A stretch of 47,489 bases of DNA from a phage (GCA_025699765.1 GCA_025699765.1_4134.1); one strand, 5' to 3'. Counted from the stretch's first letter, positions 2,991-44,819 are shown. A program made the numbers and translations. Notes: generated by a model not told the origin, from the letters alone.

Positions 2991-3517
2991 TGCGTTTATC
3001 TCCTTCGTTTACGATGAATCCATTATAGCCATTAACAGCGTTTAGTCAATCGAATACATGTAATTGGTGTGTAATCGCGTGTCTATATTGCTCAAGTTAC
3101 AACCAGCATCAGCAGAATCAATGTCTTAAGTAGATTTTTATGCGCTGTCTATTGCGTAACACTTGTAACCGCTTTTTCTTAGAAATACAGAGATACCTAC
3201 AAATAGAATCCACATTGATTAAATTTTGAACATACATGATAGAAACTTGACGAATCAATCAAATCACCTGTTACACGATAGACAACTGTTACACAACAAT
3301 AATTATATATATAAAGCTAAAATTAAATATTATATATCTATATATATTATATAGAGTTTTTATCATATCTACCTGCGGTCGGATAGGGTCGATTTTGTAA
3401 CACCCCTTCCAGTGACAAAAATATACACCTGTTACACGAAAAATTTTGTAATCCAGCTATTGCAATAAAAGTAAATGCGACATACAATGCAATCACACTA
3501 ACGACGAGGACATACAA
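2991..3517. promoter_or_regulatory. AT-rich divergent control region with short direct and inverted repeats
   Basis: 527 bp non-coding stretch between divergent genes. CTGTTACAC occurs three times (about 3270, 3286, 3430), TGTCTAT twice, and there is a (TA)n-rich core at 3300-3360 containing tatatatattatataga, also found at about 32735. Confidence 0.45.
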
Positions 3518-3748
3518 ATGAAAAAGTTAATCACCATTATTGCTGCTGCATTCATCCTGACTGGTTGCGCTCAGAATCTTAAAAATGGAGACTGCGTCAC
3601 TTACGCTTACGGATCTTGCATGATGCGATTCGTTGACGGTAAGAAGGTTCCGGCTGGCGAAATCGATATGCGATTCAAAGGTCTGTCATCCGACGACGAT
3701 CAGGGTAACTTCAGCGGTAAGGTATCAATCAAAACCAAAGAGTGGTAA
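3518..3748 (+). CDS. Small lipoprotein, possible Cor/Llp-like superinfection-exclusion protein
   Basis: N-terminal signal peptide with lipobox LTGC (MKKLITIIAAAFILTGCAQ); 76 aa; lies next to the tail-tip gene, as for cor in phi80/N15 and llp in T5. Function inferred from size and position only. Confidence 0.5.
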   Translation: MKKLITIIAAAFILTGCAQNLKNGDCVTYAYGSCMMRFVDGKKVPAGEIDMRFKGLSSDDDQGNFSGKVSIKTKEW

Positions 3749-28154: not shown

Positions 28155-28727
28155 CTATTTATTGATGAACGTGGCGGCTATGTGCTGAGCGGTAATTTCT
28201 GGATGACCTTCGACAGAAAAGAAGTCACACTCCTGATAACCGTTGACACCGATCATATCGTCAAGATAGATATAGTCGCGGCTGTCGTTGTCAAAGTTGC
28301 AACCGTTGCGATGGATTCGACACAGCTTGACCTGGATGTCACCTTCAATCATCTGCAAGATCTCGTCTTTGAATCCACCGTCAGTAAATACCGAAAGTGA
28401 ATGCGACTCTTTCACCTTGCTTTCCGCTCGCATACCGAAGAAGCGATTTCCGAACTGCGGCTTGATGACCTCCTCGCTAATCCAGATCATAAACTGGCGC
28501 GGGCTTTTACCGTTCAGGATTGATGCTGGCTCTTCTTTATATCGACGGTCCTCATACAAGAACATGAAATACTCGTAGTTAGCTTCACCCAGGATTGCCC
28601 GGGCAATCTCAAACATTGGCGCTTTGAAGCTGCGTAGCGCTACATGATCGTAAGTGTCAGCCAGGATGCATCCGATAGTGTCCTTTCCTGCGCCAGGCGC
28701 GCCGTTTAAAATGATAGCTGTTTTCAT
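28155..28727 (-). CDS. Deoxynucleoside monophosphate kinase-like P-loop protein (T4 gp1-like)
   Basis: Walker A GAPGAGKDT and an NGKSP motif, both resembling T4 gp1 dNMP kinase (recalled from memory). Confidence 0.6.
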   Translation of the reverse strand: MKTAIILNGAPGAGKDTIGCILADTYDHVALRSFKAPMFEIARAILGEANYEYFMFLYEDRRYKEEPASILNGKSPRQFMIWISEEVIKPQFGNRFFGMRAESKVKESHSLSVFTDGGFKDEILQMIEGDIQVKLCRIHRNGCNFDNDSRDYIYLDDMIGVNGYQECDFFSVEGHPEITAQHIAATFINK

Positions 28728-28835: not shown

Positions 28836-29369
28836 TCATTCATCTACCCCGTGAGATTTTAAATGACTGTGAACGTTATCGCCATAGTCAACTACAGCGT
28901 AAGTGGTTATCCCAAGCGATCTGAATTTTTTTATTATATTCACTGAGTCATCCCAAGCCGCAAGAATGTTTTCAATGCCGATCGCGCGAACCGCCTCCTC
29001 TTTCATCACCGTATCTTTCCGGTTATCGGTGCGCGGACGCATAATCAGGTAATCATATCGCGCACCGTGATGCTTAAGCCATAACTCAGATGCGTAACGC
29101 ACCTCATCACTTCGCCCGGTTAAAATTATTACATGATATCCAGCGGCAAACATGGAGTTCATCACATCGATCGTGCTTTGGATAGGGTTGTCAAATATTG
29201 CAGCGCGGTTAAACTCGGACCAGCTTTCGGTTAAGTGCAAATCCTTTGTAGGTAGCAGGTGAAGTCGACCAGATCCATCGCTAAGTGTTCCGTCAAAGTC
29301 AAAGATTGCTACGCGGCGCGGGCCGAGAAACAGGTTGATTGTCTGGCCCCAAATTGTGATTTTATCCAT
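28836..29369 (-). CDS. HAD-family phosphatase resembling the 3'-phosphatase domain of T4 polynucleotide kinase
   Basis: HAD motif I AIFDFDGTL; further matches to the T4 Pnk phosphatase domain (ILTGRSDE vs VVSGRE; DNRKDTVMKEE vs DTRKDDVVKEE), recalled from memory. Confidence 0.65.
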   Translation of the reverse strand: MDKITIWGQTINLFLGPRRVAIFDFDGTLSDGSGRLHLLPTKDLHLTESWSEFNRAAIFDNPIQSTIDVMNSMFAAGYHVIILTGRSDEVRYASELWLKHHGARYDYLIMRPRTDNRKDTVMKEEAVRAIGIENILAAWDDSVNIIKKFRSLGITTYAVVDYGDNVHSHLKSHGVDE

Positions 29370-38546: not shown

Positions 38547-38638
38547 GTGAGTCGATTTTAACCTTCAAATTTACTTGATACAACGCAAAAAGGCCAGCAT
38601 GTAAATCATGCCAGCCTGTAAGGTGATGAATGATATTG

Positions 38639-38880: not shown

Positions 38881-40032
38881 TTAGTGCGATCCTGTCATTT
38901 CTGGACGGTAGATGAATCGACCTATCTCACCAAATTTCTTGTCGTAAACGATTACCGCCGCCTGACGATATGAGCGCCACCCGCCGCGCGCGGCGTATGC
39001 ATCCTTCGCTCCTAACTGACCGTGAACCTCATCGATACCTAACGAGTGTTCAGTGATTGTCTGATGATGCCAGTGACCGCTATGAGTATACACATACTTG
39101 CTCTCTCCGAAGTCTGCACGGAAGTCTGCCGCCATCGCTGCAAGTCGCGTGTCTGCCTTTTTCATAGTGTGCCCGTGAGTGTATCCCAATAAGGTGTTTC
39201 CCCATCGAGTCTTATGCAGAATCATAGGGCTAACGTCAACGAATACTCGCGGCTCGTCTTCATAATATGCCGACATTGCAGCACGTAGCCAAATCATCCC
39301 GGCCTGGTCGTGGTTCCCTTCAATAATCTGAACCTCGACTTCTTTGTGTTTCATAAGCATTTTGTCGATAGCGCGACGCACAGAACGGATCGCAACATGC
39401 ACCAATTTTGCGTATCGTGAATCCTGATCCAGAACGTGACCGCTTGCCGGGGTAACAGCATCAAGACTGTCCGAGTGAAGGAAGTCACCGCCAATTAACA
39501 GAACAGCCTTCTCTGCGTTAGGGGCAATATCGATCGCGTAATTGAAGAAGTCGCTAAGCACTTTTTCCGCTACGTCGGTAGAGTAGTTCTCTCCGCATTC
39601 ATGCTTATGAGCAAGCGCACCAATATGGAGATCGAATACCGGATAGAGTGCCAACTTACCCATCGCTGTCGTAAGTCCTTGTGAGGTTAGTAGTTCAGTT
39701 GGCTTTGCTCGCGGCAGGTCTTCACAGAATGCAATGCGCGCCGCTTCCATCATTGCCGCAATCTTCTCGCGGTCCTGATCGGTCTTTACCCAGCGCACTA
39801 CCTCGGTCCCATCACCTCGAATCATCGTCGACGTGCCTTTTACCATGAATCCCTCGGGAACGTTTTTAGCAACATGCTCGTTACCGTGAAAATGACCTTC
39901 TTTTGCCAGCTTGGCGTGACGCGCTTCAACAGTGCGAATGTGCATGCCGTATTTTTCCGCGATCTCTCGAAGTGTTAGGCCGCTCATGCGCTCTTCGATA
40001 AGTTGCTCGGTAGTGATTTTAGCTTGTGACAT
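38881..40032 (-). CDS. HTH-metallophosphoesterase fusion protein
   Basis: N-terminal helix-turn-helix (LTLREIAEKYGMHIRTVEARHAKL) fused to a calcineurin-like phosphoesterase domain (DLHIG; GGDFLHSD; EGNHD; GHTHG; GHWHH). Confidence 0.7.
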   Translation of the reverse strand: MSQAKITTEQLIEERMSGLTLREIAEKYGMHIRTVEARHAKLAKEGHFHGNEHVAKNVPEGFMVKGTSTMIRGDGTEVVRWVKTDQDREKIAAMMEAARIAFCEDLPRAKPTELLTSQGLTTAMGKLALYPVFDLHIGALAHKHECGENYSTDVAEKVLSDFFNYAIDIAPNAEKAVLLIGGDFLHSDSLDAVTPASGHVLDQDSRYAKLVHVAIRSVRRAIDKMLMKHKEVEVQIIEGNHDQAGMIWLRAAMSAYYEDEPRVFVDVSPMILHKTRWGNTLLGYTHGHTMKKADTRLAAMAADFRADFGESKYVYTHSGHWHHQTITEHSLGIDEVHGQLGAKDAYAARGGWRSYRQAAVIVYDKKFGEIGRFIYRPEMTGSH

Positions 40033-40110
40033 ATTTTAATCCTTACATGATAATGAAATACATTACTGAAAATGAAATTAGCGGTGTTAATACTACAGCA
40101 AAATAAAGTT

Positions 40111-40512
40111 TCATGCCACAGCCTTTAACCAGAATCCTAGATCCGAAGATTTAAACTCAACAAGTTTTCCGTCAACCTCAAGCATCATACTGTTTCTGCC
40201 TGGTGAGTAGTAACCTATATGCAACTCCTGCTCAATACCGATAGTGCACAGCACGTTAACGAAGTCAGGTGGTAGCCAGTCAGAGAAAGGGATTTGCTTA
40301 ACCTGCCTTTTCCCGATCCATATTGTCTGGTAGTCATCTGAGTTAATATTTAAGCCTGGAAGTCTTGTTGTTCTTTGCGTTTTTTCGTTCTCGCTCAATT
40401 CTCTTTCCTTCTTCACGATAAAACTCAAGTGACGGGGTGGCTGGCACTCTATGCATTTTTCTCGGCATATCTTCCATAAATGAAATCTTTCCGTTTGATA
40501 TAATGCTAACAT
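40111..40512 (-). CDS. Hypothetical ORF, 133 aa; overlaps 40343-40615 in another frame
   Basis: C-terminal ~80 aa looks protein-like; the N-terminal part overlaps the neighbouring ORF. Confidence 0.3.
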   Translation of the reverse strand: MLALYQTERFHLWKICREKCIECQPPRHLSFIVKKERELSENEKTQRTTRLPGLNINSDDYQTIWIGKRQVKQIPFSDWLPPDFVNVLCTIGIEQELHIGYYSPGRNSMMLEVDGKLVEFKSSDLGFWLKAVA

Positions 40513-40615
40513 CCTTTATATCGAAATATTTTGCTATTAGTGCTATATCGTCTGATATTCCGCATTCCTTCGCGTGCTCCCAAACCTCTCGTTTACCTTG
40601 TTTTTTTATCAGCAT
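40343..40615 (-). CDS. Hypothetical ORF, 90 aa; overlaps 40111-40512
   Basis: N-terminal ~55 aa looks protein-like; the C-terminus is low-complexity basic. Confidence 0.35.
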   Translation of the reverse strand: MLIKKQGKREVWEHAKECGISDDIALIAKYFDIKDVSIISNGKISFMEDMPRKMHRVPATPSLEFYREEGKRIERERKNAKNNKTSRLKY

Positions 40616-40868: not shown

Positions 40869-41120
40869 TTAGTGCTGAACGATCGTATCTGCTTTAAGTT
40901 CATCTACGTCTTTCTGGATAATTGAAGGCCAATTCTCGATATGTTCATTTTTTATCTCATCGAAAGACATATCAAGAGAACTAGTGAAATCCCACAGATC
41001 GCAACCAATAACATCCTGAGTCAATCCGTTTCGCTCCATAATTTCGCAGCACGTAGCTCGATAAAGTAGCCATAAACCTTGATCAGTTAACTTAACAGGA
41101 ATCATTTTCTCGTTAATCAT
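40869..41120 (-). CDS. Hypothetical protein, 83 aa
   Basis: ORF with ATGA overlap to the upstream methyltransferase gene. Confidence 0.45.
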   Translation of the reverse strand: MINEKMIPVKLTDQGLWLLYRATCCEIMERNGLTQDVIGCDLWDFTSSLDMSFDEIKNEHIENWPSIIQKDVDELKADTIVQH

Positions 41121-41830
41121 ACTTTCCTTACTTTTGCGCGCTTGTTTTTAACCGAAGGGCAAATGCTTGTGATTGGGATATAGTGAGTCTGTTGAACCTC
41201 ACCCTCTTTCAGTTCGCGCATAATGAAAATTACCGAACCTTTGTTATTACCATCAACGGCCTTCCCGGTTTCACCTGATATGAACGCCAGGCGACCGGAT
41301 CGGGCGTACTCGTTCCCGTAGATATCCTCCGTCAAATCCGCTTCAATCCAGATAATCTCAGCCGCGTGCTGTCGCGCCTCAGTAAACCACGCTGTAGAAT
41401 TATCGGCAGGCAACAGAATATCAATCTGGTTGTTGTGCTCCATTTGCTCGATCGCCTTCTTGACGAATATATCAGGTCGACTGTAAGGAGGATTTAACCA
41501 TACGTGCTTATTTTTACCCCACCAACGCTTTAAGCAGTTTGTTTCATGAGAATAAAACTTCTCGCAAACTTTATTTTCCTCGCTTGCCGCAGCGTCAAGA
41601 TCATATTTTCCGTAACGCCCCTCAAGGTATGCAATAACCTCGCGTGGAGTTGACCATAAATCACGAACTGCGTCAGGTGTATTGGTTCCCTTGTATCGAC
41701 GCCCTGAAATCTCTTTGCAGGTTGGCGTTTTCAATGCCTGATAATAACCGCCTGATGCTATTGCTTCGCGAGTTAATGAGCAACCAGTATCTGCAAAGTA
41801 GATGGTTTCAATATCATTGAAGTCTTTCAT
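41117..41830 (-). CDS. dam: DNA N6-adenine methyltransferase (Dam-like)
   Basis: DLDAAAS (AdoMet-binding) and NPPY (catalytic motif IV) in the order typical of phage N6-adenine methyltransferases. Confidence 0.8.
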   Translation of the reverse strand: MKDFNDIETIYFADTGCSLTREAIASGGYYQALKTPTCKEISGRRYKGTNTPDAVRDLWSTPREVIAYLEGRYGKYDLDAAASEENKVCEKFYSHETNCLKRWWGKNKHVWLNPPYSRPDIFVKKAIEQMEHNNQIDILLPADNSTAWFTEARQHAAEIIWIEADLTEDIYGNEYARSGRLAFISGETGKAVDGNNKGSVIFIMRELKEGEVQQTHYIPITSICPSVKNKRAKVRKV

Positions 41831-41897: not shown

Positions 41898-42329
41898 CTA
41901 TTTCATCATTTCGTAGATTGAGATCTTGAATTGCGCGAATCCGTATGCGACGGCAGAGAAGCCGCCACGCTCCCGGACCTTTCGAAGAAACTCCCTTTGC
42001 TTGTCGCTGACTGGTGACGCCTTTCCTTTGCCTGACTTATTAACCCGCTTTAGTTCTATTGCTGCAAACGGGTATTTTGAGTTGACACCAATCAGGATAA
42101 CGAAGTCTGACACGCCTTTAAGCAATCCGGCCTGCTCATCCCTGAGCGCCGATGTGATTGTTTTTTCACCTTCATTGACAGTGTGCCAAAATAGAAGGTG
42201 CGGGAAGTTGTATTTCAGCCAGGACACGCAATCTACCTGGTGAGCATCCTCCTTTCGCATGTCGCTTGGATCTCGTTCGTAAAATTCTAAGTAATCGCCT
42301 TTATCAGTTACTGACATTCTTATCTCCAT
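41898..42329 (-). CDS. VRR-NUC domain nuclease
   Basis: PD-(D/E)XK-type core ...GVSDFVILIGV...AIELK...; size typical of VRR-NUC proteins. Confidence 0.6.
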   Translation of the reverse strand: MEIRMSVTDKGDYLEFYERDPSDMRKEDAHQVDCVSWLKYNFPHLLFWHTVNEGEKTITSALRDEQAGLLKGVSDFVILIGVNSKYPFAAIELKRVNKSGKGKASPVSDKQREFLRKVRERGGFSAVAYGFAQFKISIYEMMK

Positions 42330-42804
42330 GATTTCTGTGGAAGTTAAACTTTACTTCTGCATCTACCCTTGCTTCCCTAGCTTCTTCTATGTCCTTAAAA
42401 TAACCTAAGTGATATGTCTTTCCGTTGTACTTTATTGATGCTTTCCATTTTCCTGTTTTCTTGAATAGTGAAACTCCAGTTACTCCGCTAGTGTTTGATT
42501 TTGACATTGAAAGGTTTTTTGCGTTATCAGATCTTTTTACCAATCTCAAGTTATCTTTAGCTTGGTTTTTTGGGTTATGGTCAATGTGATCTATCTCAAG
42601 GCCACAAGGAACCTTAAAGCCGTGGTGAATTTCCCAAGCTATGTGATGAGCCATAAGCCTTTCACCCATTACCATTACGCTTATGTATCCATTTTTGTTT
42701 GGGCTTCCGGCAACTTCGCCTATGTTGTTCTTTTGTTTTTTACTTGATTTAGCCCTCCATCTAAGAGAACCATTTTTACACACATAAAACAAATCTGTAA
42801 TCAT
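42304..42804 (-). CDS. HNH homing endonuclease with AP2-like domain
   Basis: HNH core (EIDHIDHNPKNQAKDNLRLVKRSDN) plus AP2-type segment (SGVTGVSLFKKTGKWKASIKYNGKTYHLGYFKDIEEAREA); third copy of this family. Confidence 0.8.
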   Translation of the reverse strand: MITDLFYVCKNGSLRWRAKSSKKQKNNIGEVAGSPNKNGYISVMVMGERLMAHHIAWEIHHGFKVPCGLEIDHIDHNPKNQAKDNLRLVKRSDNAKNLSMSKSNTSGVTGVSLFKKTGKWKASIKYNGKTYHLGYFKDIEEAREARVDAEVKFNFHRNHGDKNVSN

Positions 42805-44819
42805 TCCGGGATATCCTCCATACCGAAGTCTTTGCGTGAAATAATATCTTCTTTCTTCTGGTTGCGACGATGAGTTACGCGCACCGGGTGAGCAATATGA
42901 TGTGCGTATTGCACGATCTTGATGGCATTCTTCATTCCGATAAAGTAGCGTCGCATTTTAGGATCTGATACGTGTGGCAATACGCCTTTCGTTTTCCATA
43001 TTGTACCGCAAATCTTAGAGTCGGACTCAGGGAAAAATTTTTCATACGCATTGAACTCATCACCTTCGTCGTTAATCAGCGTGTATTTGTATATTATGCC
43101 TTTCTGGTTTTTGGTTAGCGTAACCTCAAAATTCTTTACTTCATACCAGTCATTCTTGGTGTACGCCTTACCTGATAACTTCAAGTTAGGATCGACAAGC
43201 GAAACATCACAACAACGACAGACTCGGGCCACAACGTCATTCTCTGCACCGCATCCTTTAACAAGGATTTTTCCGGTGCGCTCGTCAACCTGGTCCTCAC
43301 AAATCTGAGAAATCCAGAAATGATCGCATCTCTCACCGTCTATAACGTTAACGCATCGGCGAGCGTAGAAGCTATTAACGCAACCGCATTTCGGACATGT
43401 TTTCGGATCTTTGCCGTTTTCAAAACGCTTCTGGAATTGCGCCTGCTCAAGTATCGGATCGAAATAAAGCTGACCCAACTCATCCATAGTGCCAGCGAAA
43501 TCCCATACCAGATGGTCTTGCTTAACCATTCCTTCAGCAACCTGCCATGATTTAAGCAGCCGCATACCCCTACCCAAAAGCTGAATCAACAGAGTGAGAG
43601 ATCCTATCTTGCGGAGTATGACACTAAAATCCCAATTTGGAACGTTAACGCCAGTAGTGAGCGCCATTACCTGAAAGGTGTATTTAATCTTCCCGGCCCT
43701 TACATCGTCCAGAATCTTCTTGCGCGTTTTGGTGTCTGTGTCGCCAGTGATGATTGCATAGGTGCTTCCTGGAGGCAGTGCTGCCGCCGCCTCTTTACAG
43801 TGACGCACCCCAGCGCATGTAATCAGAACCGCGTTACGCTCTTCAGCCTTTTTGGCGACCATTTGCATGATTCGCTGAGTAAGAGATTTATCATGAAGGA
43901 TCTCATCTTCCATTGCCTTCATATCTTTCTCTGTAAAGTCCTGTACGCCGTCTTCGCTTGATGCCTTGAACTTATCCAGATCGTAGTGTACGCCGTCAGT
44001 TGAACCGAATATCGTCGGCACAACAGATCCGAACTCAATCAGATAGTTTGTGTCGATATCAGTTACTCGCTCACGCCAGAATCCCAGCGCTTTAGGATTC
44101 TCTACCAGAATAGGAACTACACCCCGAAATTCAGATCCGGTCATACCAAATATTCTGAGATCGTGACCGTGAACCTTTTTACAGCGCCGCATCATTTCCA
44201 TGATTACGATCGTGTACTGACTGCGCTTGGTTCCAAGTAAAGGTTTTCCATCATTACCAATCATGGGGGCATCTCCGTCCATGATAACTTTCCCTTTTTC
44301 TCCCCTCATCTGTTCCATCGTTTCCTTGCCTTCTATTGCTTGCGCAAGGTCTTCCCAATCCACCTGGTGACATTCGTCGATCCCAATTACATGCGGGACA
44401 AAATCAGCCAACTCATTGTCGAGGCCATTTGCAACCGTACCCTCAGAGCCAACCACGATCGGGAAGTAGCAGGACTTGATTCCAAGCGATGCTGAGAAGA
44501 TGGAGTTCGTTACCCCGAAGTTGTCGATCTCCTCACTATCCTGATCGACAATCTCACCCTGCCGGGCAAGCACAAGCATTTTCAGGCCCATTTTTTGACA
44601 CTGCTTTGCCACCATAGCGAATATGATTGTTTTACCCGCAGATACTGACGCTTTAACAAAGAATGGATGCTCGTAATTTGACAGGCGTTTTGCAATCTCG
44701 GCATAAGCAACAACCTGATACGGATAAGGAACGACCTCACCGACAGTAAATCGTTCTTGAGTGCGTTTTATATAGTCCTCGCCAAGTAATGCGATTTGCT
44801 TCTTGATGTTAATTGTCAC
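42801..44819 (-). CDS. Superfamily-2 helicase (DEAD/DEAH-like) with C-terminal zinc finger
   Basis: Walker A (SVSAGKT), DECH box, and a C-terminal CPKCGC...C..H cluster; 672 aa; GTG start. Confidence 0.8.
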   Translation of the reverse strand: MTINIKKQIALLGEDYIKRTQERFTVGEVVPYPYQVVAYAEIAKRLSNYEHPFFVKASVSAGKTIIFAMVAKQCQKMGLKMLVLARQGEIVDQDSEEIDNFGVTNSIFSASLGIKSCYFPIVVGSEGTVANGLDNELADFVPHVIGIDECHQVDWEDLAQAIEGKETMEQMRGEKGKVIMDGDAPMIGNDGKPLLGTKRSQYTIVIMEMMRRCKKVHGHDLRIFGMTGSEFRGVVPILVENPKALGFWRERVTDIDTNYLIEFGSVVPTIFGSTDGVHYDLDKFKASSEDGVQDFTEKDMKAMEDEILHDKSLTQRIMQMVAKKAEERNAVLITCAGVRHCKEAAAALPPGSTYAIITGDTDTKTRKKILDDVRAGKIKYTFQVMALTTGVNVPNWDFSVILRKIGSLTLLIQLLGRGMRLLKSWQVAEGMVKQDHLVWDFAGTMDELGQLYFDPILEQAQFQKRFENGKDPKTCPKCGCVNSFYARRCVNVIDGERCDHFWISQICEDQVDERTGKILVKGCGAENDVVARVCRCCDVSLVDPNLKLSGKAYTKNDWYEVKNFEVTLTKNQKGIIYKYTLINDEGDEFNAYEKFFPESDSKICGTIWKTKGVLPHVSDPKMRRYFIGMKNAIKIVQYAHHIAHPVRVTHRRNQKKEDIISRKDFGMEDIPE

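Follow-up and report, generated by a model that had tools for sequence, protein, structure and literature searches.

What a helix-turn-helix (HTH) joined to a phosphoesterase does for a phage is the question raised by a gene on the minus strand, positions 38881–40032, of a 47,489-nucleotide stretch of phage DNA (GCA_025699765.1), hereafter the window. An earlier sequence-only reading had described its product as a 383-amino acid protein with an N-terminal HTH and all five motifs of calcineurin-like phosphoesterases, and had offered three functions for it: a DNA-targeted nuclease or phosphatase with Mre11/SbcD-like chemistry, a regulator with enzymatic activity, or an enzyme acting on a nucleotide second messenger. 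The ATG-initiated open reading frame (ORF), the alignment with homologues and an AlphaFold2 model all bear out the described architecture. Among the three functions, the Mre11/SbcD-like, DNA-targeted nuclease fits best, as judged from the profile matches of the catalytic core and from the toxicity of the orthologue in phage Bas1. We give about an even chance to the view that the protein is a DNA-tethered, binuclear-metal phosphodiesterase or nuclease that works independently of Rad50 in host takeover or DNA-end processing.

We characterized the catalytic domain by combining sequence conservation with structure prediction. AlphaFold2 supplied with an alignment of 143 diverse homologues (30–45% identity), which also underlies the conservation counts given here, produced a model with a predicted local distance difference test score (pLDDT) of 93.7 and a predicted template modeling score of 0.81, as compared with a pLDDT of 56 when 14 close homologues were supplied. 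The model has the beta-sandwich metallophosphoesterase fold, with the core spanning residues 123–375. With the single sequence, the Pfam families Metallophos and Metallophos_2 gave 15–16 bits against gathering cutoffs of 21.5 and 27, and some family members pass (for example, P0142 at 25.1 bits). The catalytic residues D134, H136, D183, N240, H241, H286, H320, and H322 vary little or not at all among the homologues (Table 1); thus, selection acts on catalysis. Motif II carries a histidine of the Mre11 type, H186, three residues past the aspartate D183, and motif III reads GGGAACCACGAC on the minus strand. Motif II runs into a family-specific loop (residues 186–206), which is predicted as coil in blocks of mean pLDDT 95–97 and in which at least 90% of the homologues keep D188, T194, D202, D204, and R206.

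The N-terminal region was likewise predicted as an HTH-type helical bundle with confidence, as the sequence-only reading had supposed. Its helices cover residues 8–16, 21–27, 32–44, and 51–55, with a pLDDT of 94–96 over residues 11–40, and the recognition helix is likely to be the one modeled at residues 32–44. Pfam HTH scores of the 383-amino acid protein by itself are sub-threshold (E 0.02–0.1). A profile built from 66 family N-termini matches GerE, NarL, VraR, and RhlR at about 4e-5, and individual family members match Pfam GerE to 1.7e-9 and Sigma70_r4_2 to 7e-11. The HTH signal also appears in the homologues from Vibrio, Xanthomonas, Rhodobacter, Jersey, Dhillonvirus, and Bas1 phages; the Campylobacter homologue (317 amino acids) is alone among the homologues compared in having no HTH, and aligns from residue 66 on. 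All 143 aligned members have 49–129 residues before the conserved beta-hairpin that follows, in which the motif KGTSTM...W81-x-K83 is recognizable and G66, S68, G75, W81, and K83 are conserved. Candidate extra domains in long family members proved to be merely a second HTH.

The sequence-only reading had regarded a DNA-binding domain fused to a phosphoesterase as unusual, which is not the case: in a very large family of phage proteins the fusion is the rule. When 1.84 billion cluster representatives (50% identity) were searched exhaustively with a profile, 5,223 clusters matched at E<=1e-3, 1,290 of them at E<=1e-30, most being 370–420 amino acids long and matching end to end; by tblastn, 2,019 of 50,697 phage records (about 4%) contain the protein. 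The phages that carry it include Drexlerviridae, Jerseyvirus, Dhillonvirus, phages of Vibrio, Rhodobacter, Xanthomonas, and Campylobacter, and the jumbo phage PAU. The family also occurs in many proteobacterial chromosomes, mostly beside phage genes, and these copies are therefore presumably in prophages. Database labels for it conflict, ranging over DNA repair exonuclease, phosphoesterase, transcriptional regulator, protein phosphatase, and polymerase subunit.

Within this family, the window gene is an ordinary, nearly identical copy of a catalogued core gene of the T1 family. The window DNA is 97–98% identical to Shigella phages phiL, pSf-2, and Shfl1 and 90–96% identical to many Escherichia T1-like phages, which on sequence grounds marks it as a T1-like phage. 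The counterpart in the RefSeq record of Shfl1 is Shfl1p67, labeled "DNA repair exonuclease, similar to T1p16", and PHROG 704 ("DNA repair exonuclease") matches the protein over its full length (residues 4–380, E=8e-157); this label is a homology-based guess. The gene, which we refer to as gp16-type after its T1 member, holds a syntenic position in the genomes of Shfl1, Rogue1, Klebsiella phage 13, and Bas1, and belongs to the core in 39 of 42 Tunavirus genomes. One deposited protein is 99.5% identical, the family is catalogued, and an orthologue has already surfaced in a defence-escape screen. The suggestion that it might prove to be a common T1-like housekeeping phosphatase of known function holds in so far as it is a common, conserved core gene; it is not a housekeeping gene and has no demonstrated function. 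We found no study in the literature that establishes the function of the gp16 family, and the TLS, BASEL, Metis, PUA-Cal-HAD, and daunorubicin papers are silent on the gene.

We then asked where the catalytic domain belongs in its superfamily. Single-sequence searches of the PDB and NCBIfam gave no meaningful match. Foldseek agreed on the phosphoesterase fold with low template modeling (TM) scores (0.35–0.41) at 10–14% identity. When a profile of the core alone was compared with PDB sequences, it matched only Mre11/SbcD (E=0.0065) and "Nuclease MPE", and the core-profile alignment put the family motifs DxHLG and GDxLH in register with DWHLG and GDLLH of Thermotoga maritima Mre11. The profile and structure searches that the sequence-only reading had proposed thus place the domain nearest the DNA-nuclease branch (PolD DP1, Mre11, and SbcD); the evidence leans this way by a small margin only, and the family forms a clade of its own. 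The nearest predicted viral structures are other uncharacterized phage phosphoesterases, often automatically labeled "DNA polymerase II small subunit".

The only experimental evidence on what the protein does in cells comes from the BASEL phage Bas1. Four escape mutants of Bas1 selected on the DRT7/UG10 defence had missense or frameshift changes in Bas01_0050, which is termed "a nucleic acid-targeting phosphoesterase", and lambda escapers from the same screen mapped to gam, which encodes the RecBCD inhibitor (10.64898/2026.02.16.706125, bioRxiv preprint). Bas01_0050 was toxic in E. coli, making its co-expression with DRT7 impossible (10.64898/2026.02.16.706125). We find that bas01_0050 (AugustePiccard, MZ501051, 38005–39135; 376 amino acids) is the orthologue of the window gene: it occupies the syntenic position, and the two proteins are 65% identical and 81% similar over their full length. 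By orthology, the window gene is probably not needed to form plaques, probably harms the host if expressed by itself, and probably helps determine sensitivity to DRT7.

These observations can be assembled into a mechanism. The LuxR/GerE-like HTH would hold the protein on double-stranded DNA. The C-terminal domain would bind two metals, probably Mn2+, through D134, H136, D183, N240, H286, H320, and H322, and H241 and H186 may serve, as in Mre11, in transition-state stabilization and substrate positioning. The enzyme would then hydrolyze the phosphodiester bonds of a nucleic acid, with DNA as the likeliest substrate, and would do so without a Rad50/SbcC ATPase, the HTH and beta-hairpin module standing in for the capping domain of Mre11. 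Expressed from an operon of DNA-metabolism genes that continues into the lysis genes, it would be a conserved, probably laboratory-dispensable enzyme of host takeover or DNA-end processing, whose activity would harm the host cell and, directly or indirectly, create the condition that DRT7/UG10 senses, as lambda Gam does. The DNA substrate, the nuclease chemistry, the binding of DNA by the HTH, and the role in host takeover are all steps that we infer. The neighborhood supports this mechanism: helicase, VRR-NUC, HNH, and Dam genes lie upstream in the window, and RusA and ligase genes lie beside the Campylobacter homologue.

Several points weigh against a DNA-tethered nuclease. Annotated viral SbcD/Mre11 proteins are far weaker structural matches (E about 1e-7, TM scores 0.37–0.40) than other uncharacterized phage phosphoesterases, and among viral structures the gp16-type family is a clade separate from them. 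The aspartate-rich loop (D188, D202, and D204) is unexpected for a DNA-binding surface. T4-like phages encode the Mre11-Rad50 pair gp46/47, and the Campylobacter phage with a gp16-type homologue is T4-like (gp30 ligase, gp18 sheath); this speaks against simple redundancy of the gp16-type protein with Mre11. Toxicity and escape from DRT7 are no proof of DNA cleavage, the frequent location by lysis genes or prophage ends also fits an accessory gene with another function, and the nuclease function proposed for the family is a prediction. A bolder version of the nuclease proposal can be offered only tentatively, as a doubtful possibility: the HTH-metallophosphoesterases would be a Rad50-independent, Mre11-like clade in which the HTH replaces both the capping domain and the ATPase clamp, and in T1-like phages the protein would be a host-takeover factor that strikes host DNA or RecBCD/DNA-end metabolism, a counterpart of lambda Gam or T4 DenA, with its activity and not the protein itself as the danger signal for DRT7/UG10.

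The best-surviving alternative, which we nevertheless consider unlikely, is that the substrates are small nucleotides. The protein would then be a phosphodiesterase or phosphatase for cyclic or linear oligonucleotide signals, 2',3'-cyclic nucleoside monophosphates, Ap4A, or deoxynucleoside mono- or triphosphates (dNMP/dNTP), acting in anti-defence or nucleotide salvage, and would use its HTH just for autoregulation or localization. The conserved loop is acidic, and the gene is apparently dispensable yet strongly conserved, a combination typical of counter-defence genes; in Webervirus it stands before genes for a HAD_PNKP phosphatase and a dNMP kinase. A family-wide HTH of the DNA-binding type is hard to account for on these terms, however, as is strong toxicity in uninfected E. 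coli, which is unexpected for a signal-degrading enzyme. Furthermore, the PDB sequence-profile matches were all nucleases, and no PADLOC or other defence-related profile matched. The known anti-CBASS and anti-Pycsar enzymes have other folds.

The Webervirus neighbor, a PNKP-type HAD phosphatase, could also be taken to point to nucleic-acid end healing, an idea that we rank slightly lower. Here, a 3'-phosphatase or 2',3'-cyclic phosphodiesterase comparable to the phosphoesterase module of Clostridium thermocellum Pnkp would make broken ends of DNA or RNA fit for ligation, thereby opposing host nucleases. The homologue in Campylobacter phage NCTC12673 directly follows an ATP-dependent DNA ligase gene, and the profile matches the ligase-associated nuclease PdeM/MPE weakly. 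However, of the lineages examined only one places the gene beside a ligase, the complete Bas1 genome, which carries the orthologue, has no annotated ligase, and T1-like phages already have a HAD_PNKP 3'-phosphatase, encoded elsewhere in the window. Toxicity would not be expected of an end-healing enzyme either.

It is improbable that the protein is mainly a transcription regulator, for instance of late or lysis genes, in which the HTH acts and the phosphoesterase serves as sensor or modulator. The HTH does resemble sigma-70 region 4 and GerE, some records carry the label "transcriptional regulator", and the gene recurrently occupies a Q-like place at the lysis/terminase boundary (PBR31, T1-like phages, and Dhillonvirus). 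Against this, the family-wide invariance of the catalytic residues places enzymatic activity under selection, the Campylobacter homologue does without any HTH, and no palindromic operator was found upstream of the gene, where we detected no significant inverted repeat or structure. The frameshift escapers of Bas1 are viable and still form plaques, so that an essential late activator is unlikely. Finally, a lambda-type Ser/Thr/Tyr protein phosphatase, as which the PBR31 homologue is labeled ("protein phosphatase (phage lambda like)") and which belongs to the same superfamily, is very improbable, as the PPP signatures GDxHG, GDxVDRG, and GNHE are absent and DLHIG, GGDFLH, and GNHD are present instead.

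The features of the locus are collected in Table 1. On the minus strand, the order is helicase, HNH-AP2, VRR-NUC, Dam, small ORFs, the phosphoesterase gene, DUF7244, a terminator, and then holin, endolysin, and spanin genes, which puts the gene just upstream of the lysis cassette, as had been noted from the sequence.

Table 1 Features at and around the HTH-metallophosphoesterase gene, in window positions
Feature	Position	Strand	Remarks
Complete HTH-metallophosphoesterase gene	38881–40032	-	Orthologue of T1 gp16 / Shfl1p67 / bas01_0050 (PHROG 704)
Shine-Dalgarno sequence AAGGA	40040–40044	-	7 nt 5' of the ATG, read from sequence
HTH domain, residues 1–56, LuxR/GerE / sigma-70 region 4 type	39865–40032	-	AlphaFold2 helices and family profile
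Beta-hairpin module, residues 57–122	39667–39864	-	Strands 62–71 and 77–86, helix 88–104, variable linker to core; AlphaFold2 secondary structure
Binuclear metallophosphoesterase (calcineurin-like) catalytic domain, residues 123–383	38884–39666	-	
Motif I, D134-L-H136, then I-G	39625–39633	-	D134 143/143, H136 142/143
Motif II, G182-D183-F-L-H186	39475–39489	-	D183 143/143, H186 140/143
Family-specific loop, residues 186–206, H-x-D-x5-T-P-x-S-G-H-x-L-D-x-D-x-R	39415–39477	-	Conserved
Motif III, G239-N240-H241-D242	39307–39318	-	N240 and H241 143/143
Motif IV, H286-G287-H288	39169–39177	-	H286 143/143
Motif V, G319-H320-W-H322	39067–39078	-	H320 138/143, H322 143/143
Intercistronic hairpin past the stop codon	38852–38869	-	7-bp GC-rich stem, GGGA (GNRA) loop; -12.3 kcal/mol, z=-1.73
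DUF7244 (SH3-clan) gene, 58 amino acids	38639–38815	-	E=4e-28; directly downstream of the phosphoesterase gene
Strong intrinsic terminator	38591–38617	-	11-bp stem and U-tract, z=-2.9; between DUF7244 and holin genes
Dam methyltransferase	41117–41830	-	
VRR-NUC nuclease	41898–42329	-	E=1.9e-13
HNH_3 + AP2 homing-endonuclease-like gene	42304–42804	-	Between helicase and Dam
Helicase	42801–44819	-	
HAD_PNKP-type 3'-phosphatase domain protein, stand-alone	28836–29369	-	E=6.5e-16

The strong terminator separates DUF7244 from the holin gene, and the DUF7244 "SH3" gene therefore groups transcriptionally with the phosphoesterase operon; a 2026 paper assigns it to the lysis cassette instead. In Bas1, the DUF7244 neighbor is kept (44% identity), and a homing endonuclease separates it from bas01_0050. 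We considered DUF7244 as an obligate partner and rejected it: the small ORFs that overlap the stop of the gene in Jersey and Dhillonvirus are not DUF7244. More generally, no neighbor cluster recurred in more than 15 of 75 loci, and no obligate partner emerged from them. The commonest neighbors across these loci are endolysins (21), followed by integrase (9), HNH endonuclease, large terminase, and portal genes.

The position of the gene varies among phages. It follows the lysis genes and precedes terS in Dhillonvirus, follows holin, endolysin, and Rz/Rz1 in Rhodobacter phage RcWhiteOak, and in Xanthomonas phage PBR31 is preceded by antiterminator Q and a small ORF, with the large terminase gene downstream. 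In Salmonella phage Jersey it sits in an island among tail genes. In the Campylobacter phage NCTC12673 it directly follows the DNA ligase gene, with RusA upstream; the HTH-less homologue, the gp30-type ATP-dependent ligase, and the RusA resolvase (locus L080, 1694–4951) are a possible DNA-repair mini-cluster of this T4-like phage. A candidate end-healing pair in Webervirus was discarded, as the neighboring "polynucleotide kinase" is mislabeled and contains a HAD phosphatase domain only; the same gene occurs in the window, adjoined by a 190-amino acid ORF (28155–28727, minus strand) with no Pfam match. The VRR-NUC and HNH_3 + AP2 ORFs of the window overlap by 26 nt.

The sequence-only reading had also mentioned an adjoining palindrome. 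This probably corresponds to the hairpin located just past the stop codon, which has a stem of only 7 bp and a z-score (-1.7) that does not reach significance by itself; read on the plus strand, it looks like a terminator. It is most likely an mRNA 3' stabilizer or a weak terminator, and we found no evidence linking the HTH to it. Rogue1 and Klebsiella phage 13 have GC-rich hairpins of differing sequence at the same position past the gene. In all, short GC-rich tetraloop hairpins of differing sequence follow the stop codon in three Drexlerviridae lineages (the window; locus L081, about 3640–3665; locus L082, about 3110–3130), which suggests a positionally conserved mRNA element. Upstream of the gene are two overlapping candidate ORFs on the minus strand, of 133 (40111–40512) and 90 (40343–40615) amino acids, neither with a Pfam match; the Shfl1 equivalent (T1p17-like) is annotated at just 95 amino acids, and the true start of the ORF within 40111–40615 is therefore uncertain. 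Weak inverted repeats occur at 40494–40549.

The question of biochemical function belongs to the family and not to the window. The gp16 family is among the more widespread phage genes without a demonstrated function, and its labels are inconsistent; its substrate, once defined, would correct thousands of annotations. Knowing the substrate might also show what DRT7/UG10 senses and by what means T1-like phages deal with host DNA or RecBCD.

Comparison with characterized enzymes shows how far the resemblance to DNA nucleases goes. Against the Mre11/SbcD nucleases, a group that takes in T4 gp47 and T5 D12, motif I (DxHLG) and motif II (GDxxH), including the extra histidine, align in register, and a nucleic-acid substrate is plausible for the gp16-type protein too, given the toxicity of the orthologue. 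However, only about 190 of the 319–386 residues of Mre11/SbcD align, at 13–17% identity. The gp16-type protein stops 8 residues past the last core strand and has no capping domain, and unlike Mre11/SbcD it carries the N-terminal HTH and beta-hairpin module. No Rad50/SbcC partner is annotated in the complete Bas1 genome or found among the recurrent neighbor clusters of the 75 loci. Because it lacks both the capping domain and this partner, we do not regard it as a member of the Mre11/SbcD family.

The archaeal 3'-5' proofreading exonuclease PolD DP1 is 14% identical to the gp16-type protein. DP1 has an OB-fold module before its core and works with the DP2 polymerase, whereas the model shows just a two-strand hairpin and one helix before the core, and the Bas1 genome has no annotated DNA polymerase. 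Nuclease MPE of Pseudomonas putida, or PdeM, a ligase-associated Mn2+ endonuclease, is likewise a stand-alone metallophosphoesterase without Rad50; the profile matches to it are weak (TIGR04123, E=0.067; 6nvo, E=0.7), and its association with a ligase has a parallel in the Campylobacter homologue, which also adjoins one. The N-terminal 56 residues match the HTHs of LuxR/GerE and of sigma-70 region 4, with the difference that the gp16-type HTH is fused upstream of an enzyme, whereas the LuxR/GerE HTH lies downstream of a receiver or ligand-binding domain. With the T1 gp16 family itself (PHROG 704), the window protein shares its full length, the HTH and phosphoesterase architecture, and the gene order, with no material difference.

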